The notes beneath the pieces were generated by a model. It did no database searches, was not told the origin of the DNA, and saw only the letters and a list, made by a program, of their open reading frames with translations. The position numbers were made by a program, and so were the translations under genes. Below are positions 7,523 through 60,295 of a DNA stretch of 64,000 bases, one piece after another (positions within the stretch are counted from its first letter, which is position 1; each line of letters starts with the position of its first letter). This DNA is from a virus. The stretch lies in IMG/VR virus record IMGVR_UViG_3300027708_000023; one strand, given 5' to 3'.

Positions 7523-7882
7523 ATGAACAACTCAGCTTATTACAACTATGGCCATCGTATTTTTTACCAGTTTAATAATGGACTATATCAAATTCCAGTT
7601 ATTGATTATCTTCACTTAGAGATACAAATATTAGACACAATAACCTATGCTCCTAAACAACATATAGAACATATTGATCCTATATATCCATCTAGAGAAG
7701 ATATTTCTTTAATAGATCTTATTAATAAATCTAGGCCAAATATTCACAATCCAAATAAAATCGCAATAGATATTCCATCAACCAAACACACCAAACAAGA
7801 AAGACTCGGATTCTCTTCTGCGTCTTCTTCTAGTTCTAGTCGTAGATTGGTTTTTACACGAGGTTTAAAGAACGTTGAATAA
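7523..7882 (+). CDS. Hypothetical protein
   Basis: AGGA RBS, 119 aa. Confidence 0.55.
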   Translation: MNNSAYYNYGHRIFYQFNNGLYQIPVIDYLHLEIQILDTITYAPKQHIEHIDPIYPSREDISLIDLINKSRPNIHNPNKIAIDIPSTKHTKQERLGFSSASSSSSSRRLVFTRGLKNVE

Positions 7883-36712: not shown

Positions 36713-39700
36713 ATGGCAGCATTTAATTTAACAGCACAACTAAATCTCAAGGGACCATCTAATATTGGATCAATAGTATCCAGTATTAAAAATCAACTTG
36801 GGAATATCAATACTACAGTTAAGTTTACTCTTGATCCTAATGCGGCCAAGAATGTATCACAGTTGGATGCCTCTTTAAAATCTCTTAATCAAACATTTAA
36901 AGACACCCAAGTATCAGCAACAGCGGCAGCAACGGCCGTATCCAAATTTACTTCAGCCATGAGCCAGGGTAATTCTGTTAGTCAATATAGTAATCAATTA
37001 AACCAAGCCAACCAAGCTGCTAAAAATCTATCTAGTACTCAAGCAGCGACATCTCAAGCAATACAAGAATCTTCTTCTAGTATGCAAGAGTTCGGCAAGC
37101 AAGCTGGTTTGGCGGTAAGAAGATTTGCTGCATTTAGCAGTGTTACAAGTGTTATTTATGGACTAGTTAGTGCTGTTGGTAAAGGAACATCAGAATTTAT
37201 CTCTTTTGATAAAGAGTTTGTTAAACTACAGCAAGTTACTGGAGAAAGTGCTGAAGGATTAAAATCTTTGGGCAGAGTAATTACTAGTTTATCTGCTGGT
37301 CTTGGAACATCATCAGCAGAGTTGGTGGATATTGCTTCTACATTAGCACAGGCAGGCTTGAGTGCTAGAGATACAGAAAAAGCCCTTAAAGCATTAGCAT
37401 TAAGTTCGCTAGCTCCATCTTTTGATAGCATGAATGAAACGGTCGAAGGATCTATTGCTTTGATGAGACAGTTTGATATTAGTGCTAGCGACCTGGAAAA
37501 AGCACTCGGCGCGGTCAACTCAGTAGCTGCTAAGTTTGCTGTAGAAGCCAGCGACATTATTACTGCCATTCAAAGAACCGGTGGTGTGTTTGCTACAGCA
37601 AGCAAAGGAGTTAGTGAAGGAACAGACGCTCTAAATGAATTTATTGCAGTATTTACTAGCGTACGAGCCACAACTCGTGAAAGCGCAGAAACTATTGCAA
37701 CAGGTTTAAGAACAATATTTACTAGAATTCAAAGAGAAAGTACTATTGATGCTCTTAAGGAATATGGAGTTAATCTACAAAATCTTGACGGTAAATTTGT
37801 TGGAGCTTATAAATCGGTAGAATTACTTTCTCAAGGACTATCAAGATTAGACCCTAGAGATGTTAAATTTTCCAAAATCATTGAAGAACTTGGTGGTTTC
37901 CGACAGATTGGCAAAGTTATCCCTTTGATCCAAGAATTCTCTACTGCACAACAAGCATTGTCGGTTGCTCAACAGGGACAAGGCTCGCTAGCCACAGATG
38001 CTGCCAAAGCACAACTATCATTAGCTAATCAAATTGCCAAAACAAGAGAAGAATTTTTAGCACTATTCAGAGATATAGGATCGTCTAATACTTTTCAAAC
38101 AATGGTTACTGGAGCTTTGCAGCTAACAAGCGCCTTAATCAAGGTTGTCGGGGCTGCTAAAGGCTTGCTACCAATGTTTACTGCCATTGCTGCTGTACAA
38201 GGAGCCAAAGCAATATCCCGATTTGCCGGAGGATTATATGAAGGACTATCTGGTGGAGGTAAAGATTCTTCAAAGAAAGGATTTGCTACCGGAGGTTTGG
38301 TTCCTGGAGTAGGAGATAGTGATAGTGTTCCGGCAATGCTTACTCCCGGAGAGTTTGTTGTTCGTAAAGCAGCCGTAAAAGCTATGGGCGTTAATAAATT
38401 ACATAGCATGAATAAATATGGTAGTGGTGGGAAAATAGAAACCTTTACAGTGGAGCAGTTGGCAAAAGCAGGTGGTCCCGAGACTATTTTTGAATTTGCT
38501 AAAAAGAAAAAAGACATAGAACTAGATGATAAAGTTACTGGTAAAATTAATAAAATAGAACCAAATCTTGGGCCAAAAGATTTTAAAGAAATTATTAGTA
38601 GATCTGAAGCTATTGCTAATGAGTCTGCTGGAGGAAAAAGCTCATATAGAGATTTAGAACTAACCCAAGAAAATAAACAAAATTATCTAGATGTTTATTT
38701 TGGTAAGGGTTCTAATAAAAGAAAATGGAATCCACAAGCAAGCCTATGGAAAAGCGCAGAAAAGAGGTGGGGATCAGCTTTTGAAGACTATATTGTAGCT
38801 CATTCAGACGATCAGTTAGAATCTGTTGCAGGAGGCAATTTCCCTATTGATGTTAGAAGAAAAAGAGGCAAAGCCCCCGCAGAAGTTAAATTTAGATCTG
38901 TTGAAGAAGAACCAGAGACTTTAATTAGTAAATTATTTAGATATAAGATCAAATCATCAGAACAAAAATTACTATCTCAATTTACAGAAGCAAGAAAAGA
39001 TAAAATAGATGATATTCAAGTAGGAAATATTGATTATTATCGTGCAGCAGAATCTAAACATAAATTTTATGAGTATTTATTTGATCATCCTGATGCTTAT
39101 CAGAAATTTGCAGATGGTGGCTGGGTTAAAAGAATGCAGCAGCAACCCATTAATAAACTTAAAGACGAACTAGGATTACTTGATTCTACATTGGAGTTAT
39201 TTGGTTTTCAAAGAAAGGTTCCAATTAGCACATTCAGTAAATCGGCCCCTTTCATGGAAGATGCTGGGAAAAAAGAAGTTAAAGAAAGAATAGACGCGAT
39301 CCAAAAGTTCCTAGCTGCTAAAGAACCACAAAAGGGAAAAGAAGTTGAGAAAGAAATAACTTTACCAAAAGCTCCATCTAACATTTCAGATCATCTTAAA
39401 TCGTTAATTGCAGAAAATAAAACATATGAAATAACAAGAGGAGTTTATGGGGGTGTTGTTAAACAAGCATTAAATGAAGCATATAGGGGAAATTTGGGTC
39501 CTGGTAATAAACAAGAAAATATAGATAAGGTTGGACCAAAAAGTATAGTTAGATACAATCCAGACAGAGAATACGTTGATGTTCCTTTGAGCGTGTTAGA
39601 AAATGATGTCAAATATATTGATAAAGTTAAAAGTTTAGAAGGTAGAGATGTTGAAAATCTAACTGCTAATAAAGGCTATAGCGTTAGTGATATGCTAGAT

Positions 39701-42700
39701 ACTATTAGAGCATATCAGGCAATAGGCTTAGACGGAGCTCTTAATCCCGCTTTGGGTAGAAAAGAAGATTTAAGTCAGTCATTAGCTGATGTAGCAGGTT
39801 TGAATAAGACAAAAAGAAAAAAACTTGGACCAGCAGTAGATCAGCCATTGTCTTATTTTGCTGGATCATTAGATGCTGCTATGCAATTTTCATTACCAGA
39901 AAAATTATATAGTGGTATAGGAGCTAGTAAGCAAAAACTATTTATAGAATCAGCTGGCGTAAAAATTAATAAACTAGAAGATACCAAAAAACTAGTTGGA
40001 AAAACTGTCAGTATACCTTCTTTCTTATCTACTTCAGAAGTGCCAGCCACAGCAGAAAGCTTTGCAAGAACAGGCATGATGACAATAGAAACAAACAAAA
40101 AAAGCAAAGGATTAAGTCCAGAAAGAGCTAAGACAGAAACAATTAACAGAGACAAATCAAAAACAAGAAAAATAGACCAGAGACTTATCTCTGATTCTTA
40201 CGGTAAGGGCAAAGCCGATGAAAATTATGCTGACGATTATGATATTGAATCAGAATATATTCTACCAAGAAATTCTCAATTTAAAGTAAAAAATATAGAG
40301 GCTAACGATAATAGTACAGAAGGTGGAAATCTTCTTGAATCGCTCAATATGGATTGGGCTGTAAAAATGTTAAGCCGTGGAGGGAAAGCACAAAAATTTG
40401 CAGACGGTGGAGTAGCTCAACGAAAAGTTGGATATATTGATTATGACGTTATTGCTAATCCTGATAATGAAGCCGTTGTCAAGAAGGGTATGGAAGCCAC
40501 CGGAATGACCGGTCCTAGACTGTATACTGATCATTTAACACAGCTAGCAATACAAGCAAGAAAAGAAAGTAGTCTAGATAAATTAAGAGCAATATATGGT
40601 GTTGCTGGTAGTGGTAAAACAACACTAGCAAGAGGCCAAGGAACAGATAGTGGAACTTTAAGACAAACTGAAAGATTCCCAATATTATCTCCAGAAGATA
40701 TTCAAAGAGCTACTGAGGTTTTAGTTTTAAGTAGTAGTGTTTCAAAAGATAAATTAGATAACGTTTTTGGAGAGACAGACAGAACATATACTTTAAGCTC
40801 TACTACTAAAGAGGAAAGAGAAGGAGTTAGATCTCGTAGAGTTGGAAGAGACATTAGTGGTATAGGTTTAGAAAATCGTAAACCTGGATCCACAACCAAT
40901 GTTGCAACAGATACCGCTGTCAGTGAAGCTTTATTATCAGACAGACTTGGTAATAGATCTACTGTTTTAGGTCGCTCTGAGAGTGGCAGATTACGCAGAA
41001 AACAGGGAGATGAACTGGTTGATGTGGTTAAAAAGAAAATAGGATTTACATGGGGAGGTTATTCTCCAATGACCGCTGGTCATGAAAGTATTCTGGATGC
41101 GGCAGCCGCAATGGGCATACCCCCAGAAGATTTCATTTATATGGTTGGATCCAACGAAGGAATAGTCCCTGGAAAAGAGCAATCCTATAGAACAGCAATA
41201 TTTGATCAAGATACTAGAGTTTTATTGGCAAAAGCTGGTGCTGGTGCTCGTGGAGCCACTGTGCTTCCAAAACCAAGAGACTTTGAAGTTCCTCAAGCTT
41301 TCGACCTCTCTGAACCAGGAGAACGCCGCAAAGTATTAGTACCAGCTAAAGGTAGCACAACATTTGTGGCTGATAAAGATCCAAAAGAAACAGAAAAATA
41401 TAAAACAGCTGGATATAAAGTTAAGAATATAGAGAGAACTGGTGGTATTAGTGGAACGATGGTTCGTGACCTTATAAAAGAAGGCAATCTTGGAGAATTA
41501 CAAAAGGTATTGAGTCCTGGAGTTTATGATCTAATTTCGAGAAATATAGGGAGAATTCAGAACAGAAGTAAAATACTTCCTTCAATCATAGAAGAAGTCA
41601 AACAAACACAAGGCGTTAAATTAGCTGATATAGAACAACAAATTAAAACTGTAGGTATTTCCAGAATAGATAATAAAAAAGCAGAAACCGATCCAGAATA
41701 TGCTGCAAAAGTTGAGGCCCTCAAGGAGTTAAGAGAAAAAAGAGATAATATCAAATCATCAGCATCATTTGAACCACACAAACTATTAGCCGCACTAGCT
41801 GTCAAACAACCAGAAAAATATGGTTTGGATTTGAGCACAACATTGGATGATGTTTCCGCTCCTATGCGTACGATGTCTTTCGGTGCAGTTCAAAGATTTT
41901 TGGATGGTGGTTGGGTACAACGAATGCAGTCTCAAAAGAAATCCACCCTCAAAGAAGATCTTAAATTTTTACAGTCTGCGATGGTATTTTCTGACGAAAC
42001 AGGCTCGTATGTCCCAACTTATGCTAAAGAAAATGAAAAAGAAGTTGTTGATGCTAAAGAAATGTTGGAACGATATAATGCGATGTCTCAGTTTATCACA
42101 GGCCCCCGTTCGGCTAAATCTGCTCTAAAACCAACAGGAGGATATAATTCTCAAGAATTATTAGATGCTGTTACCTATTATCAGGCTGGTTCTGGACCAC
42201 TCACAAGAGCTATGGTTAATAATGACTTTATTTTCACAGACAGAAATGAAGCTTACGATACTGAAGATTTAGTAGGAAGACTAAGCGCAGCTAGCCAATA
42301 TAAATTGCCCAAAAAACTATATAGTGGTTTGGGAAGAGGTCAATTTAATGAAATACTAAAAGATACAAATATTTCTCCAGACGATTTAATTGGTCAAACC
42401 TCCAAATCTATTGAGAGTATGATTGGCAAAACAGTTGACTTTCCAACTTTCTTATCTGCTTCTGTAAACCCAAACATGGCAGAAGGATTCGTTGGAGATC
42501 CCGGATCATTATTTTCTATAGATTCTAGTAAGTCTAAGTCTTTGGGAATAGATATATTGAAAGCCAAAGGAACATCTCCTACAGATGCATCTCCAACATC
42601 TCGTAGATTACCAGGATTAGATAAAATCAAACAGCATAAAATTGCTGGTTATGACCAAGAAAAAGAATTTGTATTACAACCCAATAGTCAATTTAAAATC

Positions 42701-51700: not shown

Positions 51701-54700
51701 GAGGTCAAAAGATTTTTTGATCCGGACCTATTTAAAGGACCTCCAACACCAAATGGAAATCCGGCAGCTATTAAACAAGCCATAGACATGTTTCAATCAT
51801 TAGAAACTAATAATAAGTCATCATCTTTTAGTATTAATGATAAGAGTGCTGGGAGTAATCCATATTTTGCCGCCATGGATAAAGCAGCTTTAACTCCAGA
51901 TAAAAGAAACAGAGTATCTGAGGACCTAAAAGGATCTAAAATAGATAAGAGTAGCAATAATAAGGACACAATTGATCTACAAGAATTCAATCCTCTCGAT
52001 CTAGATAATGCATCATATAGAAATATATTTACATATGCTTTAAATCCGTATAATCAATATACAAATAGAGATATTCGAGCTAAGTTTTTTGATGAATTTA
52101 TTACCAGGATTCCAACAGCAACAAGAAGTAACGGGGCCCCATTATTTAGTGTAACTGAAGGTGCCAGATATGGTGGTGCTCTTAAATCTCTAAAGTCTTG
52201 GTTCGGAGGTAAGGGTAATGATGATGCTATGATACCAGTAAAAGCCAATAAAGACTGGGAAGGAATAGACTATCTGTATGATCAAACAGCCAACAAAACA
52301 GTTTCTTTTGGCGACAGACTAACAAGTCTCGATAATTCTTTAGCTCCTAATTTTTATGATGCAAACAAGTATGCGTTTGATTTTGTTGGTGGCACAGGCA
52401 TGTTCGGAGAACTACCAGATTTAAGCAACTATGAAAAAAGAAAAGTAGAATATAAAAATCAAGGAGGATTAATATACGCTAGCCAAGGTCAGCTTATTAA
52501 TTTTGAACCAAAGGGCACTGATACGATTCCTGCAATGTTAAGTCCTGGAGAATTTGTTGTTAATAGCGGAGCAACAGCACGAAACCTTCCCCTGCTAAAT
52601 TCTATTAATAAAAACAAGGGAGGAAAAATAGGATACTATAAAGATGGGGGTGTTGTAGATAATGAATCATTGTCACTATTAATGACACAAATGAAAATTA
52701 CTGAAAAACTATCTTCTTCTCAAAAAAGTATTTCTGATAGTAGTTCATCAGACTTAGCATCTCCATTACTCAGAATATCTAATGATAATGAAATTATCTC
52801 TATTGGCATATTACAAAGCATATTAAAAACTCTAGAAGATATTAAAGACTCTACACTAACTTGTTGCACAGGCAAAGATATTGGCAAGCCTCTTGATATA
52901 GCCACAACTTTACCATCACAGGTAAGGCCAGTTGCTCCTTTAGATATAAAACCGCCTGTTACAGCTGAGGAGGGCATTACTGAAGGATTCTCTCCACCAA
53001 TACCTCCTATTCCACTCCCGGATCTTCCAATACCAAATAAGCCAGATTTTGAGCCAATTCCGTTTCCAGAAGTTGAGCCTATTGTGCCAGAAATGCCCAC
53101 AATGCCGGAAATGCCTCTTCCTGATGTTAGAGAACCAATCTCAACTCCGGAAGACATACGACCAAAAACTATGCCACAAATGCCAGTTATGCCTCAGCCA
53201 GAGGTTGTATTACCAAAGAAACCAGCTTACACAGAACCATTTCCTGTTGAGAATTTTTCACCTAGTTTACTTCCAGGTTTTCCCAAAAACCCAACAGCCC
53301 CAACCTATGAGAACGGACCAACAGGAATCGATAGTCCATTTTTTGATCCAAATTCTTTACCCGATAGAAAAAAACCCCTCACTATCAGCAAAGTTGCGAA
53401 AGAAGCAGATATTACTCGCCAAGAAGCGATCACAGGCAGAGAAAAAACAGATCTCGATACTTCAAAATCAGAAGACATTATTAAAGAATCAGAAGCTCGC
53501 AGGGCTTATAATAGAGAAACACAAACAGCTCAATCTGCCCGCGCAGGAAATGTTCTATCTTCTGGTATTAGTCGAGCTAATGGAGCTATTACTGCAATTA
53601 AAGGTGCTCAAGAAATTAAAGAAGCAGGAACTTCCTATGATGCTTTTAGGGGTGGATTAAGTGTAGTCGATGGAATAGGAGACTTAGCAGGCGCTTCTGC
53701 TCCCCCATTAGCTGCTGCTGGTGACGCTGCTGGTTTAACTCGTAATAGTTTAGATTTCTATAATAATCCTGAGACTCGTTTACAAAGCGGTTTAGGTATT
53801 GCTAACGATGCAACTTCATTAACTCTAAGAGCTGCTCAAACAACCTCTCTTATGGCTCCAGCAGGAAGCTTGGCTAGTCAAATAGCAGCCCCTCTAGGAG
53901 CCGTAGGAGGCGTGGCAGAACTTGGCAGAGGCGCTGTTGCTGGTGCTTATGATACTAGTAACGAAGCAAAATTAAGAACAGCAGTAGAAAACATTATTAT
54001 AGGAGCAGCAACAGGAGATGCTACAACAGGAGGTTCTAGTTTAGCTGGTGCTGCTAATGCTTTTGGGGCAAATATTCAGCAGGGAGGTATGGTAGATACT
54101 CAATTAGCGGCAGGAGAATCATCGCTACGCTTAGCGGGTATCGGAGCAACTTTGGGTACTTTTGTTGCGCCGGGTCCCGGAACAGCTATTGGTGGAGCTG
54201 GTGGGGCAGTTGTGGGCGCAGGAGCAGAGCTATACAAATCTGGTTCCGCATACGCCAGAGAATCTGCACAAGCCCAACAGCTACAAGTTAGAACTGACCA
54301 GATGGTTAAGTCCAGCAAAACACAAGAGTATGTGACTGGATCAGACGGTACTGTCACAAAACAATCAAAAAATCCAGACAGCTTTAATTTTGGTTTAGAT
54401 GCTCAAGAATCAAGTCTGGTCAGATCCATAGCCACCCTCACTGCTCAAATTTCTTCTCTTAGACAGCTAGAAGAGAAAGGACAAATGCAGGTTGAAGAAA
54501 AACCAATACGCGATGCTATTGCAGAAAAAGAACAAACACTATATGCTCAAAGATCTGGATTAAAGGAGCTTGCAACACAAAAAACTAATGATGAAAATAC
54601 AACCTTTTTTAGACTTGGACCAGATAGTCCAATTGTCAAAGAGAAATTAGATAAATATCAGTCTTTGGTGGGCAGAGCCATAGAAGAACTAGGATCTAGT

Positions 54701-57700
54701 TTATCTGATAATATTAAACCAGAATCATTACCTCCTCTAGAGGTTGAGCCACAAACGAGTCTTATTGCTGCGAAACACAAAGCTATTGGTGGAGTTGTTT
54801 ATGCTAGTATGGGAGCATTATTTTCTCCCAAGGGTACAGACACTATTCCTGCTATGCTAAGTCCCGGAGAATTTGTAGTAAATAGCCAAGCAACACAAAA
54901 TAATTTACCATTACTACAGGCAATGAATAGTGGGAATAGTACTATTTATAGATCCACAGGATCAAAAAATCCCGAAGGTGGTATAAAATTTGGTCCTAAT
55001 AAGCCAATCCTTCAAGCTATTGATGAATTAGAACAGTCCGGACATTTAGAAGAAGCTACATTGAATAATATTTCAAAGTATTTTGGAGGTGGTGAGGCAC
55101 CCAAATCTAAAATAGTAGACTATAGTGGTGTCCTCAAAAATCGAGAATATAGACGAACACAAAAAGAGGCTAGAGAAGTTGGAAGCACTTCTCTTTTTAA
55201 TCCCCAGGGCTCCAACAGCTTTGTTTTTAGTCTTAGTGAAAGAAAGAAATACCCTAATGCTGGGCAGTATGTTAGAGAGCTTGGATATCCAAGGCACAAA
55301 AAGTGGGAAGATATTTTAAATAATGCACCAGGAACAAATATTACAGAAAAATTATCAACACTTGTTGATTCAGATCTTAATTATGTGGCTAGCTCGTATT
55401 TTAGCAGAGAGAGTGGTACTTATACAGAATTTTTGGATTATGTTATAGCAGCAGCTAAACAATTATCGATGGTTAAACAGAAAAAAGCAGAAAAGAAAAA
55501 ACACGAAGATTATGTTAGGGTTGTAGAAGAAGCCAATACTGGAAAACTAAGAAATTATGAGGCAGGAAATGTTAGGGGGATGGATCTACACTATAACATG
55601 CTTGGAATAGGTTCTAAAAATAGCGAAAAACAGATAGAACATCTAGATACTGAAATAAAAACCTTATTATTATCTGATATTAATCCAATAGACTTTAATA
55701 CTAGGGGTAAAGCTGAAAGAAATGATGCTGAGTCATTCTTTAAATATAGGGCTGATGCTCTCCAATCAACCGCGCCCACATATTCTAATATTTATAAAGA
55801 AGCAGCTTCTACAGAAGCAGATATTGATGATTGGTATACTGCTAGAATTTTACCACAACAGTCAAGAGACTGGACTTACACTGAAGGCAGAAAGTGGGTA
55901 GACTATTTAGGTATTCCAGAGAATAGAGATGAAGCTCTAGTTGGCGCTATTGGATTGATGACTAAAATTTTACCTGGAGTTTTAGGAGTAGCTGGGGCTG
56001 GACTAGGCTTTGTTTTAGGAGGCGGCCCCACCCCTATAGGTTTTGGTACTGCTGCTGTTGGTGGATTGGGTGGAACATTGGCAGGAGAAGGACTTAATTG
56101 GGCCATTGCACAAGGAATATCTGCGATATTGCCCGAAGATATGATGGAGTCTATAAAAGAAAAAATAAAGAAACATCCAGAAAACTATGAAGCTGGAAGA
56201 TGGGTCGGTTTTGGTGGTGAATTGCTTGGTGGAACATTATATGCGGAACCTATAGAAAGATTGGTACATAGAGGTGTTGGTCAATTTATGGCCAAAAGAG
56301 GTATGGCTGGCGCAGAGCATCACTTGACGCATAGTGTAGATATGCACGCTGTACAAGAAAATATGACAAAACAATTAGGGAAAAAAGCCTATGAAGCATC
56401 TACCAAAGAAGGACCTTATGCAGCTGTTGTTCGTTCTGAAAAGATAGCACCACCAACGACAAATGGATCTTTGGCTTTGGAAAGTCCTCTGGTGCCGGGA
56501 GCCAAGGGAACAACAAGATATCGCCCAGTTACTTCGGGGGGAAGCAGCATACCAGAGCAACTTGCCCTTTTTAAAGAGAATCTAAAAACCGCAATTAAAA
56601 AGTATGTTGATAATAGAGGAAAAGTGGAGATATTTGAAAATGGACAGCAAACTTTTCAATCCGTAACAGCTCAAAAAATGTTAGATGATTTTGGTATGGT
56701 CTTTTCTAAGGCTCCTTTATCGGTATTCGACGATAATAGTGCAAAGTTTTTACAAGAAGCATTGACATCCAAGCCCGAGCTTTATGCTAGCTTAAAAGAA
56801 GCAATAAATAATAGCCCAATAAGTGGATTCTCTTCTCAATTAGATAATGCATTATCTAATAAACCTAATACTCAATGGTCAGAAGCTTTGACGAAGATAA
56901 GAGAGGCTCTAGAGGAAAAAATTAAACTAAAAGGAATATTACCGCCGGAAGAAGCGGCCAGATCTGCAGAAACTAGTTTTCAAGAAATACTTACTCAGGC
57001 AGGAATCAGTTCTCCTCGATCTGCTGGCGCTTCTGTTAGTAATTTTGAATTACCCAACTTACCCGGTCAGACTTTAGGATTAGTAAGACAAGAGTATCTG
57101 AAGGATGCTGTAGTTAAAAAAACGTCTGAATTAGGTAGTCTTCGTATGACCCTGGCAAGAGCTATTCACACAATAGGAGAAAAGTGGAAAGAAGAAGGCT
57201 TAATAAGTTTTATGGAAAAACAGATGCACCACTATCTTGTGCCACACAAGCATGACCATGATCATGGTGATGAACATGGTGAGGCACATGGTGCCGAACA
57301 TGGTGGTGGACATGGTGCCGAACATGGTGGTGGACATGGTGCCGAACATGGAGATACTCATGGTGACGAACATAAAGCCGCTGGTCACTATAACGGAGGA
57401 TTAATCTATGCTTCTACTGGAAAGTATATTAATTTCCAACCCAAGGGAACAGATACTGTACCAGCCATGCTTACCCCTGGTGAATTTGTAATTAATGCCA
57501 GATCGACTGCTCAACACCTACCACTATTGAAAGCTATTAATAGTGGAGCTGATGTTTCTTCACCCGATACTATGAATAAAGGAGGTGTGGTATATTTGGT
57601 TGGAGGAGGAAGAGCCCCTTCAGGAGCAACCCCAGCTGGCAAACAAGCAATACCTGTACCATTAACAAGACAACAAAGAGTCAATAGAGTTAACGACATA

Positions 57701-60295
57701 GGAACACCATCTCGTATCAATAGTGCAAATCTTGATCCAGACACTGGAGAGATTAGATGGCCTGTGGTCCTCAGAGATCGTCCTTATACTATCCTTAGAG
57801 ATAGTCTACAAAAATCATTTAAGAGACTAGCAGAGAGTGGAACAACAGACTCTTATGAAGACTATAATAATACCCTAACTGACTTTAAAGAATTACGATA
57901 TCAGTTAAAAGAAAATGTTGATAAATATCGAGGGAAAGATGCAGGGAATTATGGAAAGTCTGTATCTTACTTACAAAGCCTAGAAAGAGAATACAGAATA
58001 GCTGCAGGCGATGGACCAACAGGAGATCAAAGAGACTGGAGAAAAAAGAAAAACCCGATACCAGTCGCTGGTGCTCCGGCCGGTGCTCCAGCTGGCGCTC
58101 CAGCCGGTGCTCCAGCTGGCGCTCCAGCACCACTCTCTCAAGATCCCAGAGAAAAAGCAGCACAAGAACTAGCAGAAAAAAATAATAGAATAGCAGCATC
58201 TGGAATGGCTCCCAGACTAGATGAAAAAGACATTAAACTAGATTGGACAGAAAAGAAGGATGGTTCCAAACAGTTCGAGCGAACAGCTAAAATTAATTGG
58301 CCTGTAGTTCTTAGGGACGGTGTCTTCTCCAGCGATAGAACTGCTATAGAAAAAGCAATGACTCGCCATGTTGGGTATGATGATTCTATTCAAGCCTTTA
58401 ATGAATTTAAGAGCAGATTAAAATCCAGAGTAGGAGAATATGACGCTGGAGATTATGGTAGATCTAGAACGTTCTTAGATAGTTTGCAAAGAGAATATGA
58501 CATGATGATAAAGAGTGGCACTTGGGATCTAGGAGGAAAAAAGAAACCAGATTGGAGAAAACCAAAAGAAAAACCAGCAGATCCCGCACAGGCCGCCCCA
58601 GATCCTGCTCAGGTACCAGATCCTAATGCTCCACTAGCAAATCCTTTTAATCGTAGAGAGCAAGCAAATGCACAGAGAGTAGAAAAAAATAACAGAATGG
58701 CCCAAACGTTTGCTCTTCCAAGAATCACCACAGATACAAATATGCCTGTCTCAATAGATACTGACACAGGAAGTATCAGGTGGCCATTGGAGCTAGGAAG
58801 ACAAAAATATAGTCAGCACACAGGAAATATCCAAGATCTATTTAAGAAAATGGTAAAAATTAGAAAGGATGCAGAAGATACCGGAGATAGACCAGTTGTC
58901 GATCATAGTATTTATCAAACAGGATTATCCGAATTCAAAGATTTAAAAGATTTATTGAAAGAGAATGTTCATGTTGTTGATAGTTCTAATTATGGAGAAT
59001 CTAGATCTTTCTTAGATAGCCTAGAACAAGAATTTATTATAGCAGCTAAGAATGGAGGAAATGTTGGAGGTGATAAAAAACCAGATTGGAGAAGATCAAA
59101 AACAACACCAGATAAACCCCCAGCAGGAGAAACACAAGAACAAAAAGCAAGAAGAGAAAAGAAAGAGAAAAATGATAGAGTCTCAGAGATGGGACAGTCA
59201 CCAAGGACCAACGACACTGTGCTCAACCCAGGGACCGGAGAGATCCAATGGACAATGGCTCTAACAGATTCTGAATATGCTCGAAACAGAAGCGCTATAC
59301 AAAAAGCTTTTGAAGATATGGTAAATAGTGGGGGTGGCGAAGATGTAGATTATGACACCTATCAAAATGTCAGTGGGCAATTTCAAGAATTTAAGAATTC
59401 CTTTAGAGCAAATCAAAGCAAATACTCCTCAAGTGACTATGGCGAATCACGCACATTTTTAGATAGCTTAGAAAGAGAATATGATGTAGCGGCTAATAAT
59501 GGTAGTAATATCGGTGTAGATGGTAGTAGTTGGAGAGAACCAAAAAATCTTGCTACAGGAGGATTAGTTTACAGCAATAATCAGGCTCTGCAAAATAGCA
59601 GTAATCACTATGCTTCTGGAGGTATAGTATATGCTAATAATGGAGCATTAATTGATGCCCAAGCTTCTGGTACTGATACTGTTCCGGCCATGTTAACACC
59701 CGGAGAATTTGTGGTCAATCGCAACTCTGCTCAGAAGTTCATGCCAGTTCTGAATGCTATTAATGGAGGAGCATATTCTGCGGGTGGGATTGTTAATTAC
59801 TTGGCTAATGGTGGCTTTGTGCAGCCTCACTACCTGTCTCGCGGTAATGAGAATCCTATTGGGGCTATGAGCCAGATATCTAACAGTAGCGGTGTATTAA
59901 ATAATAGTGTTGGCCAAAATATGGTTATGGCTAAACCAGCTTGGGTTGATGAGTTTATTGGTCAGGCACAGGAGATTTCAAAAGCCATAGGCAACGCATT
60001 AACGGACGTAACATCAAAGCTAAATAGTGTAGGATCCACCATGACAGAAAGCGCACAAAAACTAGCCAATACTTCTAAGGCAATATCCGAGACCAAGTTC
60101 CCAGACGAGATCGTACTAACACATAGCGGTCATATTATCACAGATATGCTACCAGAACGAGTTAATGATATTGTAAAAAGAAGTATTGATACGTCGGTAG
60201 CTATTAGCAATGATAATATAAACAACTCAATAGCTGGCGTGAACAAAAATTTGATGAAAAGCACTGAAGGAGCAATAGGAAGACAAACCGCTTAA
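36713..60295 (+). CDS. Giant modular tape measure protein (7860 aa) with embedded enzymatic cargo domains
   Basis: N-terminal TP901/PhageMin_Tail-like helical region (aa ~120-500); position after tube and chaperones; eight DTVPAMLTPGEFV-type modules; ART, kinase, NTase, HAD, HExxH and PD-(D/E)xK motifs. Confidence 0.9.
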   Translation: MAAFNLTAQLNLKGPSNIGSIVSSIKNQLGNINTTVKFTLDPNAAKNVSQLDASLKSLNQTFKDTQVSATAAATAVSKFTSAMSQGNSVSQYSNQLNQANQAAKNLSSTQAATSQAIQESSSSMQEFGKQAGLAVRRFAAFSSVTSVIYGLVSAVGKGTSEFISFDKEFVKLQQVTGESAEGLKSLGRVITSLSAGLGTSSAELVDIASTLAQAGLSARDTEKALKALALSSLAPSFDSMNETVEGSIALMRQFDISASDLEKALGAVNSVAAKFAVEASDIITAIQRTGGVFATASKGVSEGTDALNEFIAVFTSVRATTRESAETIATGLRTIFTRIQRESTIDALKEYGVNLQNLDGKFVGAYKSVELLSQGLSRLDPRDVKFSKIIEELGGFRQIGKVIPLIQEFSTAQQALSVAQQGQGSLATDAAKAQLSLANQIAKTREEFLALFRDIGSSNTFQTMVTGALQLTSALIKVVGAAKGLLPMFTAIAAVQGAKAISRFAGGLYEGLSGGGKDSSKKGFATGGLVPGVGDSDSVPAMLTPGEFVVRKAAVKAMGVNKLHSMNKYGSGGKIETFTVEQLAKAGGPETIFEFAKKKKDIELDDKVTGKINKIEPNLGPKDFKEIISRSEAIANESAGGKSSYRDLELTQENKQNYLDVYFGKGSNKRKWNPQASLWKSAEKRWGSAFEDYIVAHSDDQLESVAGGNFPIDVRRKRGKAPAEVKFRSVEEEPETLISKLFRYKIKSSEQKLLSQFTEARKDKIDDIQVGNIDYYRAAESKHKFYEYLFDHPDAYQKFADGGWVKRMQQQPINKLKDELGLLDSTLELFGFQRKVPISTFSKSAPFMEDAGKKEVKERIDAIQKFLAAKEPQKGKEVEKEITLPKAPSNISDHLKSLIAENKTYEITRGVYGGVVKQALNEAYRGNLGPGNKQENIDKVGPKSIVRYNPDREYVDVPLSVLENDVKYIDKVKSLEGRDVENLTANKGYSVSDMLDTIRAYQAIGLDGALNPALGRKEDLSQSLADVAGLNKTKRKKLGPAVDQPLSYFAGSLDAAMQFSLPEKLYSGIGASKQKLFIESAGVKINKLEDTKKLVGKTVSIPSFLSTSEVPATAESFARTGMMTIETNKKSKGLSPERAKTETINRDKSKTRKIDQRLISDSYGKGKADENYADDYDIESEYILPRNSQFKVKNIEANDNSTEGGNLLESLNMDWAVKMLSRGGKAQKFADGGVAQRKVGYIDYDVIANPDNEAVVKKGMEATGMTGPRLYTDHLTQLAIQARKESSLDKLRAIYGVAGSGKTTLARGQGTDSGTLRQTERFPILSPEDIQRATEVLVLSSSVSKDKLDNVFGETDRTYTLSSTTKEEREGVRSRRVGRDISGIGLENRKPGSTTNVATDTAVSEALLSDRLGNRSTVLGRSESGRLRRKQGDELVDVVKKKIGFTWGGYSPMTAGHESILDAAAAMGIPPEDFIYMVGSNEGIVPGKEQSYRTAIFDQDTRVLLAKAGAGARGATVLPKPRDFEVPQAFDLSEPGERRKVLVPAKGSTTFVADKDPKETEKYKTAGYKVKNIERTGGISGTMVRDLIKEGNLGELQKVLSPGVYDLISRNIGRIQNRSKILPSIIEEVKQTQGVKLADIEQQIKTVGISRIDNKKAETDPEYAAKVEALKELREKRDNIKSSASFEPHKLLAALAVKQPEKYGLDLSTTLDDVSAPMRTMSFGAVQRFLDGGWVQRMQSQKKSTLKEDLKFLQSAMVFSDETGSYVPTYAKENEKEVVDAKEMLERYNAMSQFITGPRSAKSALKPTGGYNSQELLDAVTYYQAGSGPLTRAMVNNDFIFTDRNEAYDTEDLVGRLSAASQYKLPKKLYSGLGRGQFNEILKDTNISPDDLIGQTSKSIESMIGKTVDFPTFLSASVNPNMAEGFVGDPGSLFSIDSSKSKSLGIDILKAKGTSPTDASPTSRRLPGLDKIKQHKIAGYDQEKEFVLQPNSQFKILKASGNISEDLKEKLSGIKKKKEQKSFAAKSDTGEEFTVYEPDFEAGISEILNEKSRINIQAQMLSLGGKAQRFSEGGRTLSPLLQSIYDSMKDKPEWLKEFGLPDSVTTDVPAKTIAQLYSGKNFPTDPSLGMFAGKPISIDNVNAVWRKSFASSMTPEKTANYTAAKNYLAQELKDDTTEQTKLTIRDVNKSTKLGIVGLQPTDKKEIQGPMKLGDKNVTLFIAGLSSEYDTAVKNMRRGVEGVVNQFGSDIQDTKIFGSSEKYAFDFDETLVTGADIVDANGNPDIPKYSDFEAVRESMKNAELTQLGKKLKKLIAQDPSFLKKSRILTARPQETAGILAETLQRLELPFQVSDITGVSKPIGESKLDIADETTKRINNTTIAKAKAQDVKQLEALIDDNLQNVTETRKAGKKAFHYTELKDLTQEEKSASGFPNIEGAITQSVMTVMGATGGLIQNGAVDYENGLGPAAQYFPGIGSDWPTEVKRTLDSNAISDAKKEFTRYYKENGNKGILAQAFADGGLAETPQKEKEYGKISITMATGGKVNKHLEQYRQVLSSILPPEMLTEDGMLKMPSGEGKSIHITPPVQKTLFQKLGLASYDSGKAYYSGGLDYKSLRHLLNKRRSELPPIEAEGLDKFISQNLAFIGNEDEISLRGAKHKGVLAHETFHDIQGFLYDNHPKIMDKLISSVGSEKDNIERWYKDPTNKKFTEKGNYQFKQLFPDSSSNSPYGTDLGDSARSAVTKAKRFKGDKTISSDHLLSLLIDNQKQLGANETVPVLLGAASEGNKQAAEILSKVFENAGLKPDFMDTLPKFAAGGMVPGVGNGDTVPAMLNVGDFVIRKSSVNSIGPDKLASMAGYAAGGSVSDKVPALLTPGEFVFSKTAAQKIGYPKLHSMNKVGKFASGGAVGLRVGYADGGAIQDLGKFLSVVSSMLNSIPTRAMSIRPNTIDSSTTKINDSSTIDALSLLGKALENVGVKTSETAALVKRGGDISYKATIDAMEADLERAKIAGLSSKQIIALEDVIKLTREKSTQAVANKQFLEKSFSNSDTGKKLGSGAAQQAILTKASELEPKIRENTEYSNRLSLMGSGLSSQQIAATAKSMTDTPESREKIKSKSIIAATEEVTGVDRKEFTKQHLEASDIQQYIAQSMLDRKTLTQMDRQVLADKMDELQRTKAFKQASFEEQKKMLDQIRAQAKQETSQRREVLDPIAKEKGLPGLKEGSIPQSLSGIFSSKAGLAGLGLLATAPGLIEAFGPSAKTSSSASFMGGLRGAGETASAGLTLAGQLPGAAGPILAATAIATLASAAIKARNAFIEFEKNLANRQLEVSLSNLQQLFAELAKDTKDIRIQNQISSEIQKGAGNVSRLEQIDSSFPKAFFANGLDALFASRDSRDKGTANGTQASSDRSKILEKFGTAAYYRSTGFGQANFGLNAIGADARADKNRKMYLEMMAPEEAQERAKRSSALSESSQAFILNKAKSGKTATEISKEPDYEVLARNIALANNAVQEQILAIERSNLVNKEAAKTSIIRQYAEEQLIKITRQAQQERAMELSERAGRQFSMSFDRMFANMNQSIMSTNNSLDIFSDRLDSSINAFGGQASIGKTNLDTINTLKTPNISSSASFASAASTGSSLFGTENKLVESILVLGRDLESSLMSTINKTIQTNPRASDTKISSDIENSINNLLGKSNLPPDLTAQLSKSIGIGITEIRRKEGEGTKDRKIDFAELLRAIPGLKDTVDALKTTNNSVIASLENYQTVLDKFTQKLEMSSEKLREAAERRFKADDIVIDSSIQLAKTFGSDINPALGNVLRNQRTSRMTGGVTDPNDLLVQINQLQSRSTNQRDNLNELKNRSIGQPGAINAIIDNEKALSRTNYQLNQTYTALKNLADSGDAASNALSAIQAAQQKQAGKVSLIEKLVGSAPDELDTFNRALVRLQRTAGGERLYQTADQRKEILSVLNDITPLMGSNQEAHNFKANTLENLLQTSGIGLNPQFQSIINSIRNPEADPAVKQATEEYKNAVQVQSEANRAIAELNTNISTKLVEDMSKALKDSITNTRVKFDEGQIKDIVAGIRSATTVVAPGAPVARASGGIIYSAAGSYVDFQPQGTDTVPAMLTPGEFVMSKPAVDRIGSGTLSRMNKGYSNGGQVSYYADGGYVSSLLQNKYVDRSTGEPLIRKTGTFSIDNGTQNYPNLSEEFTTGSLNTFKNLQILPSFGAGTASGQIDSSGKKNETHTIGYSDQPNLGYGVPPSATYLAWFFSQKEEKNRGAYKYTEPAGAGTPSIVPLGVFLSPGTTTKSILDEKPLIFDGPELEAKKKFEQYIEKLTEVNRLLPTKIEQKNDAYDISVGAANFNIPSPDSINNAIKEFPSVSTTGKPGEFSIKGMSKPVSGYVGLYSDRSSGLPTVDGLLGNLGAGHSEENLPDIVLQRLGKDIMGISPQTRGTSNTNGFTGAGKKSEYDYSVTPPKIVDYGLSKSFMDGWISGLGKKPQTIKLPGSDMSSLVSLRQKITGEKYINDLKNKKLTAKEAEYEAVIAKKLKRISDKTESSVDINNDYFDLKKLGSDSDSVNVFSISTGEWPPYVKMLQQSINNSKNKETLEKLSYYGKDPTKLPFDVWPEGDFTKLQQFGWMDSGLEFDKATAAQVTRKVEDRAKQANPDIIENSITGKIKLNDPQLELPYRLNYSQNNKPTWWDTKTNSKSGKPIVDGFDSLYLLNAGGETAGAKGSTDNILQLLNTGDKRLFATSNGLEKYIPDQLSEQINNDPKLLAYLKSAMANGYDSKETQTLERSNLDGLFKLKLNKNLLGLLTKADAPGGFGDQFKETGDIFSGDIQFFLRDYIVETAKKLSSDKKATQLTDSKKKFGNSRDTSKLVGFDEGQEFAGASLALVLGAEELFGSGGEFELPGILPQNWFKPMLPTQFNSIYDMPQGLIREGMGRLGSWLSDASGRVEKYITPEMAQRDPRQYDKIIRAQTYMRGALSAFSSFEKEATGEVKRFFDPDLFKGPPTPNGNPAAIKQAIDMFQSLETNNKSSSFSINDKSAGSNPYFAAMDKAALTPDKRNRVSEDLKGSKIDKSSNNKDTIDLQEFNPLDLDNASYRNIFTYALNPYNQYTNRDIRAKFFDEFITRIPTATRSNGAPLFSVTEGARYGGALKSLKSWFGGKGNDDAMIPVKANKDWEGIDYLYDQTANKTVSFGDRLTSLDNSLAPNFYDANKYAFDFVGGTGMFGELPDLSNYEKRKVEYKNQGGLIYASQGQLINFEPKGTDTIPAMLSPGEFVVNSGATARNLPLLNSINKNKGGKIGYYKDGGVVDNESLSLLMTQMKITEKLSSSQKSISDSSSSDLASPLLRISNDNEIISIGILQSILKTLEDIKDSTLTCCTGKDIGKPLDIATTLPSQVRPVAPLDIKPPVTAEEGITEGFSPPIPPIPLPDLPIPNKPDFEPIPFPEVEPIVPEMPTMPEMPLPDVREPISTPEDIRPKTMPQMPVMPQPEVVLPKKPAYTEPFPVENFSPSLLPGFPKNPTAPTYENGPTGIDSPFFDPNSLPDRKKPLTISKVAKEADITRQEAITGREKTDLDTSKSEDIIKESEARRAYNRETQTAQSARAGNVLSSGISRANGAITAIKGAQEIKEAGTSYDAFRGGLSVVDGIGDLAGASAPPLAAAGDAAGLTRNSLDFYNNPETRLQSGLGIANDATSLTLRAAQTTSLMAPAGSLASQIAAPLGAVGGVAELGRGAVAGAYDTSNEAKLRTAVENIIIGAATGDATTGGSSLAGAANAFGANIQQGGMVDTQLAAGESSLRLAGIGATLGTFVAPGPGTAIGGAGGAVVGAGAELYKSGSAYARESAQAQQLQVRTDQMVKSSKTQEYVTGSDGTVTKQSKNPDSFNFGLDAQESSLVRSIATLTAQISSLRQLEEKGQMQVEEKPIRDAIAEKEQTLYAQRSGLKELATQKTNDENTTFFRLGPDSPIVKEKLDKYQSLVGRAIEELGSSLSDNIKPESLPPLEVEPQTSLIAAKHKAIGGVVYASMGALFSPKGTDTIPAMLSPGEFVVNSQATQNNLPLLQAMNSGNSTIYRSTGSKNPEGGIKFGPNKPILQAIDELEQSGHLEEATLNNISKYFGGGEAPKSKIVDYSGVLKNREYRRTQKEAREVGSTSLFNPQGSNSFVFSLSERKKYPNAGQYVRELGYPRHKKWEDILNNAPGTNITEKLSTLVDSDLNYVASSYFSRESGTYTEFLDYVIAAAKQLSMVKQKKAEKKKHEDYVRVVEEANTGKLRNYEAGNVRGMDLHYNMLGIGSKNSEKQIEHLDTEIKTLLLSDINPIDFNTRGKAERNDAESFFKYRADALQSTAPTYSNIYKEAASTEADIDDWYTARILPQQSRDWTYTEGRKWVDYLGIPENRDEALVGAIGLMTKILPGVLGVAGAGLGFVLGGGPTPIGFGTAAVGGLGGTLAGEGLNWAIAQGISAILPEDMMESIKEKIKKHPENYEAGRWVGFGGELLGGTLYAEPIERLVHRGVGQFMAKRGMAGAEHHLTHSVDMHAVQENMTKQLGKKAYEASTKEGPYAAVVRSEKIAPPTTNGSLALESPLVPGAKGTTRYRPVTSGGSSIPEQLALFKENLKTAIKKYVDNRGKVEIFENGQQTFQSVTAQKMLDDFGMVFSKAPLSVFDDNSAKFLQEALTSKPELYASLKEAINNSPISGFSSQLDNALSNKPNTQWSEALTKIREALEEKIKLKGILPPEEAARSAETSFQEILTQAGISSPRSAGASVSNFELPNLPGQTLGLVRQEYLKDAVVKKTSELGSLRMTLARAIHTIGEKWKEEGLISFMEKQMHHYLVPHKHDHDHGDEHGEAHGAEHGGGHGAEHGGGHGAEHGDTHGDEHKAAGHYNGGLIYASTGKYINFQPKGTDTVPAMLTPGEFVINARSTAQHLPLLKAINSGADVSSPDTMNKGGVVYLVGGGRAPSGATPAGKQAIPVPLTRQQRVNRVNDIGTPSRINSANLDPDTGEIRWPVVLRDRPYTILRDSLQKSFKRLAESGTTDSYEDYNNTLTDFKELRYQLKENVDKYRGKDAGNYGKSVSYLQSLEREYRIAAGDGPTGDQRDWRKKKNPIPVAGAPAGAPAGAPAGAPAGAPAPLSQDPREKAAQELAEKNNRIAASGMAPRLDEKDIKLDWTEKKDGSKQFERTAKINWPVVLRDGVFSSDRTAIEKAMTRHVGYDDSIQAFNEFKSRLKSRVGEYDAGDYGRSRTFLDSLQREYDMMIKSGTWDLGGKKKPDWRKPKEKPADPAQAAPDPAQVPDPNAPLANPFNRREQANAQRVEKNNRMAQTFALPRITTDTNMPVSIDTDTGSIRWPLELGRQKYSQHTGNIQDLFKKMVKIRKDAEDTGDRPVVDHSIYQTGLSEFKDLKDLLKENVHVVDSSNYGESRSFLDSLEQEFIIAAKNGGNVGGDKKPDWRRSKTTPDKPPAGETQEQKARREKKEKNDRVSEMGQSPRTNDTVLNPGTGEIQWTMALTDSEYARNRSAIQKAFEDMVNSGGGEDVDYDTYQNVSGQFQEFKNSFRANQSKYSSSDYGESRTFLDSLEREYDVAANNGSNIGVDGSSWREPKNLATGGLVYSNNQALQNSSNHYASGGIVYANNGALIDAQASGTDTVPAMLTPGEFVVNRNSAQKFMPVLNAINGGAYSAGGIVNYLANGGFVQPHYLSRGNENPIGAMSQISNSSGVLNNSVGQNMVMAKPAWVDEFIGQAQEISKAIGNALTDVTSKLNSVGSTMTESAQKLANTSKAISETKFPDEIVLTHSGHIITDMLPERVNDIVKRSIDTSVAISNDNINNSIAGVNKNLMKSTEGAIGRQTA
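57245..57388 (+). repeat. His-rich tract with a 24-bp repeat (HGAEHGGG)
   Basis: HKHDHDHGDEHGEAHGAEHGGGHGAEHGGGHGAEHGDTHGDEH. Confidence 0.9.
57670..59540 (+). repeat. Four tandem copies of a ~120-aa domain inside the TMP
   Basis: Repeated R..R....TG(E/S)I.W..L...YG.S..(F/Y)L.SLE.E...WR, separated by Pro/Ala linkers such as (APAG)n. Confidence 0.85.

Follow-up and report, generated by a model that had tools for sequence, protein, structure and literature searches.

The 64,000-nucleotide viral DNA stretch analysed here (IMG/VR record IMGVR_UViG_3300027708_000023; called the window throughout) contains a single open frame of 7,860 codons on the plus strand at 36713-60295, the only open reading frame of such size within the window. 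Our analysis suggests that this frame encodes a giant tape measure protein that would carry exchangeable, ready-made enzymes into the host, a reading to which we assign a probability of about 60%. Its parts differ in strength: that the product is a real, giant and modular tape measure is very likely, delivery of the enzymes into the host is rather probable, and cleavage of the protein at its internal junctions is a tentative proposal. The open reading frame list and the translation agree with an earlier reading of the window made by a model from the letters alone (the original prediction), which had described a frame of 7,860 residues at these positions. The source is an uncultured freshwater jumbo phage, as drawn from relatives of the protein that lie on contigs of up to 248 kb.

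Tape Measure Identity and Layout

The first 520 or so residues had been predicted to be those of a normal tape measure protein, and family profiles confirmed this. Residues 149-484 score 94.8 bits with TIGR01760 (tape_meas_TP901; cut-off 28.8) and align with positions 2-332 of the 349 in that model, and the N-terminus matches PF10145 with 78.9 bits (cut-off 33.2). This N-terminal domain, module A, contains hydrophobic segments at residues 138-156 and 464-496. A second helical, tape-measure-like stretch had been placed at about 45464-48990, with four further cassettes behind it; both were recovered, and copies of a repeated motif delimit all of them. The second stretch, module I, carries Gly/Ala-rich hydrophobic segments at residues 3237-3311. 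No close relative was found among GenBank phages, where the tape measure domain alone matches SPbeta-like phages at 22-27% identity. The modules are listed below, all on the plus strand, with motif scores from a hidden Markov model (HMM) and with counts that refer to the 112 relatives described further on.

36713..38260, plus strand: module A, TP901-type N-terminal domain, residues 1-516 (TIGR01760, PF10145); in 108 of 112 relatives
38261..38446, plus strand: motif copy 1, residues 517-578, from a FATGG start to a YGSGG end (86.6 bits)
38447..39106, plus strand: cassette B, residues 579-798; in 21 relatives
39107..40396, plus strand: cassette C, ADP-ribosyltransferase-like, residues 799-1228 (PF03496); in 14 relatives
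40397..41896, plus strand: cassette D, residues 1229-1728, predicted P-loop kinase-like domain, HIGH-superfamily nucleotidyltransferase and helical hairpin (AlphaFold, Foldseek, VIA)
41897..42919, plus strand: cassette E, second ADP-ribosyltransferase-like cassette, residues 1729-2069, paralogue of C; in 20 relatives
42920..44257, plus strand: cassette F, predicted HAD-type phosphatase plus a conserved segment, residues 2070-2515 (HAD motifs); in 48 relatives
44258..44323, plus strand: 22-residue stub between two junctions, remnant of a cassette of about 183 residues
44324..45148, plus strand: cassette G, HExxH plus a downstream Glu, residues 2538-2812, zincin-like candidate; in 18 relatives
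45149..45463, plus strand: motif copies 2 and 3 plus two more xAxGG heads, residues 2813-2917 (77.8 and 71.5 bits)
45464..48994, plus strand: module I, helix-prone core by composition, residues 2918-4094 (about 1,170 residues); in 86 of 112 relatives
48995..49198, plus strand: motif copy 4, residues 4095-4162 (93.2 bits)
49199..52453, plus strand: cassette K, residues 4163-5247; in 13 relatives
52454..52660, plus strand: motif copy 5, residues 5248-5316 (83.6 bits)
52661..54781, plus strand: cassette L, residues 5317-6023, with Pro-rich and Gly/Ala-rich stretches; in 6 relatives
54782..54970, plus strand: motif copy 6, residues 6024-6086 (90.3 bits)
54971..57391, plus strand: cassette M, residues 6087-6893; in 4 relatives
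57392..57583, plus strand: motif copy 7, residues 6894-6957 (82.3 bits)
57584..59611, plus strand: cassette N, residues 6958-7633, four diverged repeats of about 150-180 residues with Pro/Ala linkers; in 3 relatives
59612..59803, plus strand: motif copy 8, residues 7634-7697 (90.2 bits)
59804..60295, plus strand: module O, conserved C-terminal end, residues 7698-7860 and stop; in 50 relatives

The Junction Motif

The original prediction had placed eight module junctions on the pattern (F/Y/M)xxGG, at 38282, 39107, 40397, 41897, 42920, 44258, 44324 and 45149, and each of them proved exact. The pattern [FYWM]xxGG occurs 25 times in the protein against 5.05 +/- 2.24 expected (500 shuffles, maximum 14). 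As a simple pattern it over-splits the protein, for example inside the HIGH motif at residue 1445, and also under-splits it; the cassette boundaries themselves are (F/Y)AxGG pentapeptides, a short motif that is also the head of an element of about 60 residues, which starts with the pentapeptide, continues through a conserved V-P-A-M-L-x-P-G-E-F-V core and ends at another xxxGG. An HMM of this element found eight copies, at residues 517-578, 2807-2865, 2857-2909, 4095-4159, 5248-5316, 6024-6086, 6894-6957 and 7634-7697. AlphaFold modelled copies 2 and 3, with low confidence, as strand-strand-helix-helix. The internal repeat copies are just 60-79% identical in DNA and include no long exact repeat; at this level of identity, recent gene conversion or recombination between motif copies within the gene is unlikely.

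All 112 relatives contain the motif, in one to nine copies (mode 5). Across the family the first copy lies right behind the N-terminal domain, at median residue 535, and from the last copy to the C-terminus the median distance is 224 residues. A family profile of the motif also matched residues 733-784 of the lambda tape measure protein gpH, 121 residues from its end, with 24 bits, the best of 1,000 shuffled gpH sequences reaching 9.8. The matched stretch runs from F-A-T-G-G to Y-A-T-G-G and lies in the glycine-rich region where gpH is cut. Many ordinary tape measure families in PHROGs likewise have the motif close to their C-terminus, and a tblastn search with copy 4 hit 280 GenBank phage records at one place each; among the 40 matches listed, every annotated one is a tape measure gene. 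Because of the PHROGs occurrences, the gpH match and the single place per phage record, we take the element as a normal part of tape measures, which ordinarily have a single copy and of which this protein has many.

Relatives and Cassette Exchange

A search limited to proteins of 4,323-13,755 residues yielded the 112 relatives, which measure 4,347-7,733 residues, so that the protein studied here is longer than all of them; nearly all carry PF10145. Modules A, I, D (in 84 relatives), O and F form the constant parts, and B, E, G, C, K, L, M and N are rarer. When all BLAST segments of at least 150 residues between the giant protein and its relatives were considered, a junction pentapeptide stood no more than 10 residues from 37% of the homology ends, where chance would give 3.9%, a tenfold enrichment that overstates the number of separate events, since homology ends favour domain borders anyway and the relatives are not independent. 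In the alignment of cassette G, the rows that reach the ends begin at xAxGG and finish at K-F-A-x-G-G, whatever comes next. Module D begins exactly at the pentapeptide in 56 of 84 relatives and has 15 different upstream and 10 different downstream neighbours. The proposal that domain boundaries coincide with the Gly-Gly junctions thus holds across the family.

Alignment of related tape measures, the check that the original prediction had suggested, revealed gain, loss and swapping of cassettes at the junctions. The three closest relatives (P0002-P0004) are 92-97% identical to the protein in module A, and in all three the space from motif copy 1 to D is taken not by B and C but by another cassette, about 250 residues long, whose right-hand join lies at the pentapeptide; this replacement resembles staphylococcal nuclease by eye only, and Pfam gave no match for it. 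A contig from a fourth lake sample (X4), about 94% identical over 37672-41184, carries 829 unrelated bases in place of 38421-39105, that is, of cassette B. To the left this replacement is flanked by Y-G-S-G-G (residues 569-573) and to the right by F-A-D-G-G at 39107. On the same contig, 38056-38290 is also replaced, by 268 bases. At the 22-residue stub between F and G, the same three relatives carry 183 extra residues, and the stub corresponds to the first 17 residues of that cassette, which looks acetyltransferase-like by eye only. In P0004, cassettes K and L stand in reverse order, with breaks inside motif copies. The family also follows an order rule, in which the enzyme-like cassettes all lie N-terminal of core I (D in 65 of 65 cases, F in 39 of 39) and K, L, M and N always C-terminal of it.

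Clustering of the family segments with strict coverage gave 446 clusters including 303 singletons, counts that are inflated. We scanned 149 representatives, the most widespread of the 446 clusters among those of up to 650 residues, against Pfam and found ADP-ribosyltransferase domains in 5 cassette families, EF-hands in 2 and DnaJ in 1; beyond these, only the tape measure domain and four single marginal matches were obtained. ADP-ribosyltransferase is thus the commonest recognisable type, and EF-hand and DnaJ cassettes occur in P0015, P0039, P0101 and others. Pfam gave no match for ten extra cassette types from relatives.

Enzyme-like Cassettes

Cassette D provides the clearest case. Its AlphaFold model, built on a 52-sequence alignment, reached a pLDDT of 89.9, and residues 212-395 of the model superpose on the nicotinate mononucleotide adenylyltransferase NaMNAT (4rpi) with a VIA Z score of 13.6 and a root-mean-square deviation of 2.6 Å over 151 residues. 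Foldseek likewise related this part to PPAT/NMNAT enzymes (E 4e-6, probability 1.0), and the N-terminal half aligned with the zeta toxin 6epg, a P-loop kinase, at VIA Z 8.0. K74 of the Walker A motif, H229 of HIGH, and S352 and R357 of SxTxxR are invariant in the 52 sequences, down to 26% identity. Both the (T/H)xGH and the SxTxxR motifs are present, with T226, G228 and T354 at least 90% conserved in the same set. A PDB profile search with D returned no significant match. At the fold level the models confirmed D as a predicted kinase joined to an NMNAT/PPAT-type nucleotidyltransferase, in agreement with the original assignment. When its profile was run against 1.84 billion representatives, 106 proteins were found, mostly thousands of residues long, the shortest of which may be fragments. 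Because these matches are so few and mostly giants, we regard D not as an optional cassette but as a core part specific to this lineage, with hardly any occurrence outside giant tape measures.

Two modules had been predicted to be ADP-ribosyltransferases. Cassette C passes PF03496 (27.3 bits against a cut-off of 23.4), and its family profile matches the clostridial binary-toxin enzymes BECa of Clostridium perfringens and iota Ia with E 0.0036. Cassette E, for which no Pfam match of its own was found, is a clear paralogue of C (BLASTP E 1e-15) and reaches its assignment through C only. In the joint alignment, S308, S310, E381 and E383 are at least 90% conserved, and the S-T-S (S-A-S in E) and ExE motifs are present. 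The NAD-binding Arg of strand beta-1 is replaced by Ser, the Y-R-R column of BECa reading Y-S-G in C, E and their relatives. The sequences therefore make it well supported that C and E are ADP-ribosyltransferase-like; their activity is uncertain because the NAD-binding Arg is Ser throughout.

Cassette F had been described as a HAD phosphatase with a nuclease-like part. HAD motifs I-IV (D196/D198/T200, T259, K316 and D328/D329) are invariant in 20 sequences, and a weak PDB profile match to the HAD hydrolase 3cnh covers motif IV (E 0.06), so that a HAD phosphatase is, by its motifs, a well-supported prediction. The nuclease half of the claim was not supported: the end of F contains a conserved D391...E413-V414-K415 in a D...T-E-V-K-R pattern, beyond which nothing was matched. 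Nor was support obtained for a nuclease in cassette B, which had been called nuclease-like on the strength of a possible D...ExK pattern only. Pfam, PHROGs and NCBIfam contained no match to B, nor to E and F, beyond the repeated motif, and the Atlas feature scores of B, at most 0.82, were at noise level, as was an Atlas lead to LPD39 (0.79). A PD-(D/E)xK fold received neither family nor Atlas support for B and neither family nor PDB support for the end of F, and no relation between B and the end of F was detectable.

For cassette G, the predicted HExxH peptidase, H127, E128, H131 and E236 are invariant in 19 sequences, and the AlphaFold model has a pLDDT above 85 over the domain. The longest VIA alignments of the model (Z 5.2-5.6 over 130-152 residues) were to PPEP-2/3, the N-domain of anthrax lethal factor and Certhrax. 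Foldseek found no match for the model in the PDB; a PDB profile search and a comparison with the Pfam MPTase families were negative, and an Atlas feature search remained at noise level (scores of at most 0.90). An Atlas shape search of the model led mainly through the motif region, to phage tape measure/lysozyme fusions. The invariant residues thus stand, the fold similarity is weak, and the model is suggestive of a zincin-like metallopeptidase. Altogether, four to six modules look enzymatic, and the original count of about ten effectors was overstated.

C-terminal Cassettes and Genomic Setting

Cassettes K-N had no enzyme signature in our scans. K matched no family or structure in Pfam, PHROGs, NCBIfam or a PDB profile search, and L, M and N matched nothing in Pfam, PHROGs and NCBIfam beyond the repeated motif. 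Cassette M contains a glycine-zipper-like hydrophobic segment at residues 6407-6438 and a His-rich repeat at its end; the latter is a 12-nucleotide tandem repeat at 57251-57382, just before motif copy 7, that encodes (H-G-x-E)n and may bind metal. The four repeats of cassette N correspond to a direct repeat family (D6) with spacings of 504, 537 and 447 nucleotides, and an (A-G-A-P)5 repeat lies inside the cassette at 58067-58128. A 203-codon frame at 53049-53660 on the plus strand, in another frame inside the giant gene, is most likely spurious.

Genes for the terminase large subunit and the portal lie upstream of the giant gene, fibre-like and discoidin-domain genes lie between them and it, and large fibre-like genes follow downstream. 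The gene order is conserved in L002, which encodes a relative of 4,419 residues and whose neighbouring genes are uninformative. Upstream, 20503-23331 encodes a 942-residue protein with an Mtd_N domain (the N-terminus of a major tropism determinant), the middle of which strongly matches head-decoration and fibre PHROGs, and the adjacent genes 23405-25666 and 25677-26996 have a common discoidin-like (F5/8 type C) C-terminal domain. The second of these also has a faint tail-tube match (Phage_TTP_1, E 0.009).

Proposed Mechanism

If the protein works as we propose, on the model of what is shown or proposed for lambda, T5 and P23-45, it would fill the tail tube as a row of small domains whose C-terminal end faces the tip, a domain-chain layout that Gly-Gly junctions every 200-500 residues would suit. 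P23-45 demonstrates that a tape measure can carry a folded enzyme in such a chain. At infection it would be expelled tip-end first; the C-terminal half, with its hydrophobic segments, could form a channel, and the N-terminal third, with its presumed ATP- and NAD-using soluble enzymes, would enter last, just before the DNA. A few copies of each enzyme might then act in the cytoplasm before any phage gene is expressed. Rebuilding of NAD- or CoA-type cofactors, end-healing and modification of host proteins are our guesses at their roles.

A weaker suggestion is that the repeated motif serves as a cleavage signal that would cut the protein into separate pieces, which we propose because lambda gpH is cut in a homologous glycine-rich region. 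It is tempting to speculate further that the (F/Y)AxGG/gpH-type element is a general tape measure processing signal and that the protein is cut into about a dozen polypeptides, stacked in the lumen in gene order and fired serially, the channel formers first, the soluble enzymes last and then the DNA. We regard this extension as doubtful.

Several observations weigh against enzyme delivery by this protein. Three to six copies of folded modules of 25-55 kDa are hard to fit into a lumen of about 4 nm. Family scans of the neighbouring genes recognised no tail tube, sheath or chaperone gene beside the giant gene. No function can be recognised in the sequences of cassette B and the four C-terminal cassettes, and few of the 149 scanned cassette families have a Pfam domain. 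Among the modules that look enzymatic, C and E have Ser in place of the NAD-binding Arg, and the assignment of G is weak, with Z below 6 and no Foldseek match in the PDB. To these must be added the bias of homology ends towards domain borders, noted above, and the nature of a similarity in phage T5 (described below), which is one of appearance.

The proposal would have consequences on several levels. If it is true, a freshwater jumbo phage lineage uses the inner protein of its tail as an exchangeable carrier for several enzymes, and virion-carried enzymes would reach a new scale, phages being known to bring a few ready-made proteins into the cell. The hundreds of unreadable cassette families would then represent a large untapped pool of early-infection effectors, and natural, motif-bounded loading of proteins into a tail may interest those who engineer phage- or tailocin-based delivery. 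The link between the junction motif and the cut region of gpH makes the question of tape measure processing sites testable; should the processing-signal idea be true, it would explain the cut site of lambda gpH, unmapped after fifty years, and would make the tail a reloadable protein-delivery magazine whose cartridges evolve by swaps at the signal. At 57% more than the largest tape measure studied (5,002 residues), the protein also raises the question of how tail length is set with folded domains.

Alternative Explanations

The alternative that survives best, which we nevertheless consider improbable, is that the enzymes already work while virions are being assembled in the producing cell, modifying virion parts for instance, or that they work during penetration, in the periplasm or at the envelope. 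The cell wall is indeed the target of known tape measure enzymes, the T5 pb2C peptidase and the TM4 motif among them, and the HExxH module and the C-terminal cassettes could be directed at the envelope. However, the kinase, nucleotidyltransferase and ADP-ribosyltransferase folds would, on biochemical grounds, need ATP or NAD, which are absent from the periplasm, and fusion to an ejected protein would be costly if the enzymes worked only before assembly.

Still less probable is a pure ruler, in which the 7,860 residues do nothing but set a tail length of at least 1 micrometre, the enzyme-like modules having been captured as inactive spacers. Longer tails do have longer tape measures, the 5,002 residues of P74-26/P23-45 going with a tail of 0.8-1 micrometre; the present protein, at 0.15 nm per residue, would span about 1.2 micrometres. 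More than 90% of the cassette families are, moreover, without recognisable function. Yet the catalytic residues (the Walker A Lys, the HIGH His, SxTxxR, the HAD motifs, and HExxH with its Glu) are invariant, down to 26% identity, which disfavours a pure ruler because spacers would not keep them. Close relatives also differ by up to about 1,450 residues, which would amount to jumps of about 200 nm in tail length between near-identical phages.

Comparably unlikely is a location outside the tail lumen, with the product being, like the N4 virion RNA polymerase or the T7 core proteins, internal to the capsid or otherwise ejected, and a polyvalent protein that only has a tape-measure-like start. Other phages package polyvalent proteins that bear ADP-ribosyltransferase and HExxH domains in their heads, and the missing tail tube and chaperone matches would fit such a location. 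In contrast, the TIGR01760 match spans nearly the whole model, the gene follows those for terminase, portal and head and precedes large fibre-like genes, in a conserved order, and the gpH-type motif near the C-terminus stands in the terminal region where ordinary tape measures also have it. There is also no other tape measure candidate in the window.

An assembly chimera, the possibility that the original prediction had raised against itself, or a fusion of neighbouring genes through sequencing error, would account for the extreme length and the internal repeats only and can be practically dismissed. Across 36713-56712, the part of the frame covered by our read and assembly check, two freshwater metagenome runs (X1 and X2) each have these 20 kb in one contig with zero differences, and contigs of a third lake run (X3) tile it, again with zero differences and at even depth; these are three samples in three separate assemblies, with the source sample possibly among them. 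No repeat is identical over a stretch long enough to fool an assembler, and more than 110 independent relatives have the same layout. Because the repeats have diverged and three runs are identical over this range, the giant frame is not an assembly artefact, and a chimera is already refuted for 36713-56712.

Comparison with Known Systems

The nearest functional analogue of cassette D is NadR, an NMN adenylyltransferase/ribosylnicotinamide kinase, which aligns with the predicted NMNAT-fold domain of D at VIA Z 10.5-11.2. Both pair a P-loop kinase-like domain with an NMNAT fold, and HIGH and SxTxxR are intact in D, whereas the domain order is reversed and the sequence similarity is at motif level only (9x6f, E 0.62). 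PPAT structures score as well as NMNAT on D, so that no substrate (NMN, NaMN or other) is singled out. Phages are known to use a NadR-type enzyme, the NARP3 enzyme Bas30_86, against NAD-depleting defences (PMC13464706).

Cleavage has precedents in two ordinary tape measures, the only ones with a cut known to be mapped at least in part, and the position of the element coincides with both cuts. In lambda, a piece of about 14 kDa is removed from the glycine-rich C-terminal region of gpH, at a site and by a protease that are unknown (PMC12617516); a cut anywhere in residues 720-733 would give a piece of 13.9-12.7 kDa. In T5 (L003), cleavage of pb2 separates an enzymatic C-terminal piece, which remains in the tail until infection expels it. 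If pb2C comprises 92 residues (PMC12617516), the cut falls directly before A-E-G-G. Residues 1127-1150 of pb2 (A-E-G-G-M-M-Y-P-G...G-E-H-G-T-E-V-V) resemble the head of the junction motif by eye, and the motif HMM did not score this stretch, which makes it a resemblance and not homology. Both proteins have one site and at most one enzyme each, in contrast to the eight full motifs and about 25 heads found here.

T4 provides a virion-packaged ADP-ribosyltransferase, Alt, that is injected with the DNA. As in cassettes C and E, this is a ready-made fold of the R-S-E type, with carriage in the virion presumed for ours. Alt, however, is a head protein of its own whose R-S-E triad is complete, whereas C and E are tape measure modules with Ser for Arg.

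Polyvalent proteins are likewise giants that join unrelated domains, among them ADP-ribosyltransferase, HExxH metallopeptidase, kinase, nucleotidyltransferase and nuclease; on the published proposal, they enter along with the DNA and the peptidase splits them apart (Iyer et al., 2017, PMC5512222). Several unrelated enzyme-like domains are likewise combined here: two ADP-ribosyltransferase-like modules, a P-loop domain with a HIGH nucleotidyltransferase, a HAD module and an HExxH module. The polyvalent Pfam families (MPTase-PolyVal, LPD) were found neither in the giant protein nor in the 149 cassette representatives. Iyer et al. (2017, PMC5512222) describe no tape measure fusion, the word "tape" being absent from their text, and no motif-bounded cassette grammar.

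The closest precedent is gp96 of the Thermus phage P23-45 (also P74-26), a 5,002-residue tape measure fused to a virion RNA polymerase (Chaban et al., 2024, Nat Commun, PMC10770324). The P23-45 enzyme acts at the very start of infection, and the published model places the protein inside the tail lumen as domains strung together like a caterpillar (PMC10770324). Both proteins are giant tape measures with folded enzymes, predicted ones in our case, towards the N-terminal, DNA-proximal end. In P23-45 there is one enzyme, a two-barrel RNA polymerase, at the extreme N-terminus, whereas here four to six unrelated enzyme-like modules stand behind a TP901-type N-terminal domain and the motif-bounded cassettes are exchanged between relatives; no sequence relation between the two is detectable. 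Pfam, PHROGs and NCBIfam scans of all parts of our protein found no RNA polymerase family, and the protein does not qualify as a two-barrel RNA polymerase fusion. A paper on giant enzyme-loaded tape measures was not found in the open-licence literature. As we read it, the protein combines the concept of a tape-measure-fused enzyme, as in P23-45, with that of polyvalent proteins, and adds to them a gpH-derived junction grammar and a large family with cassette turnover.

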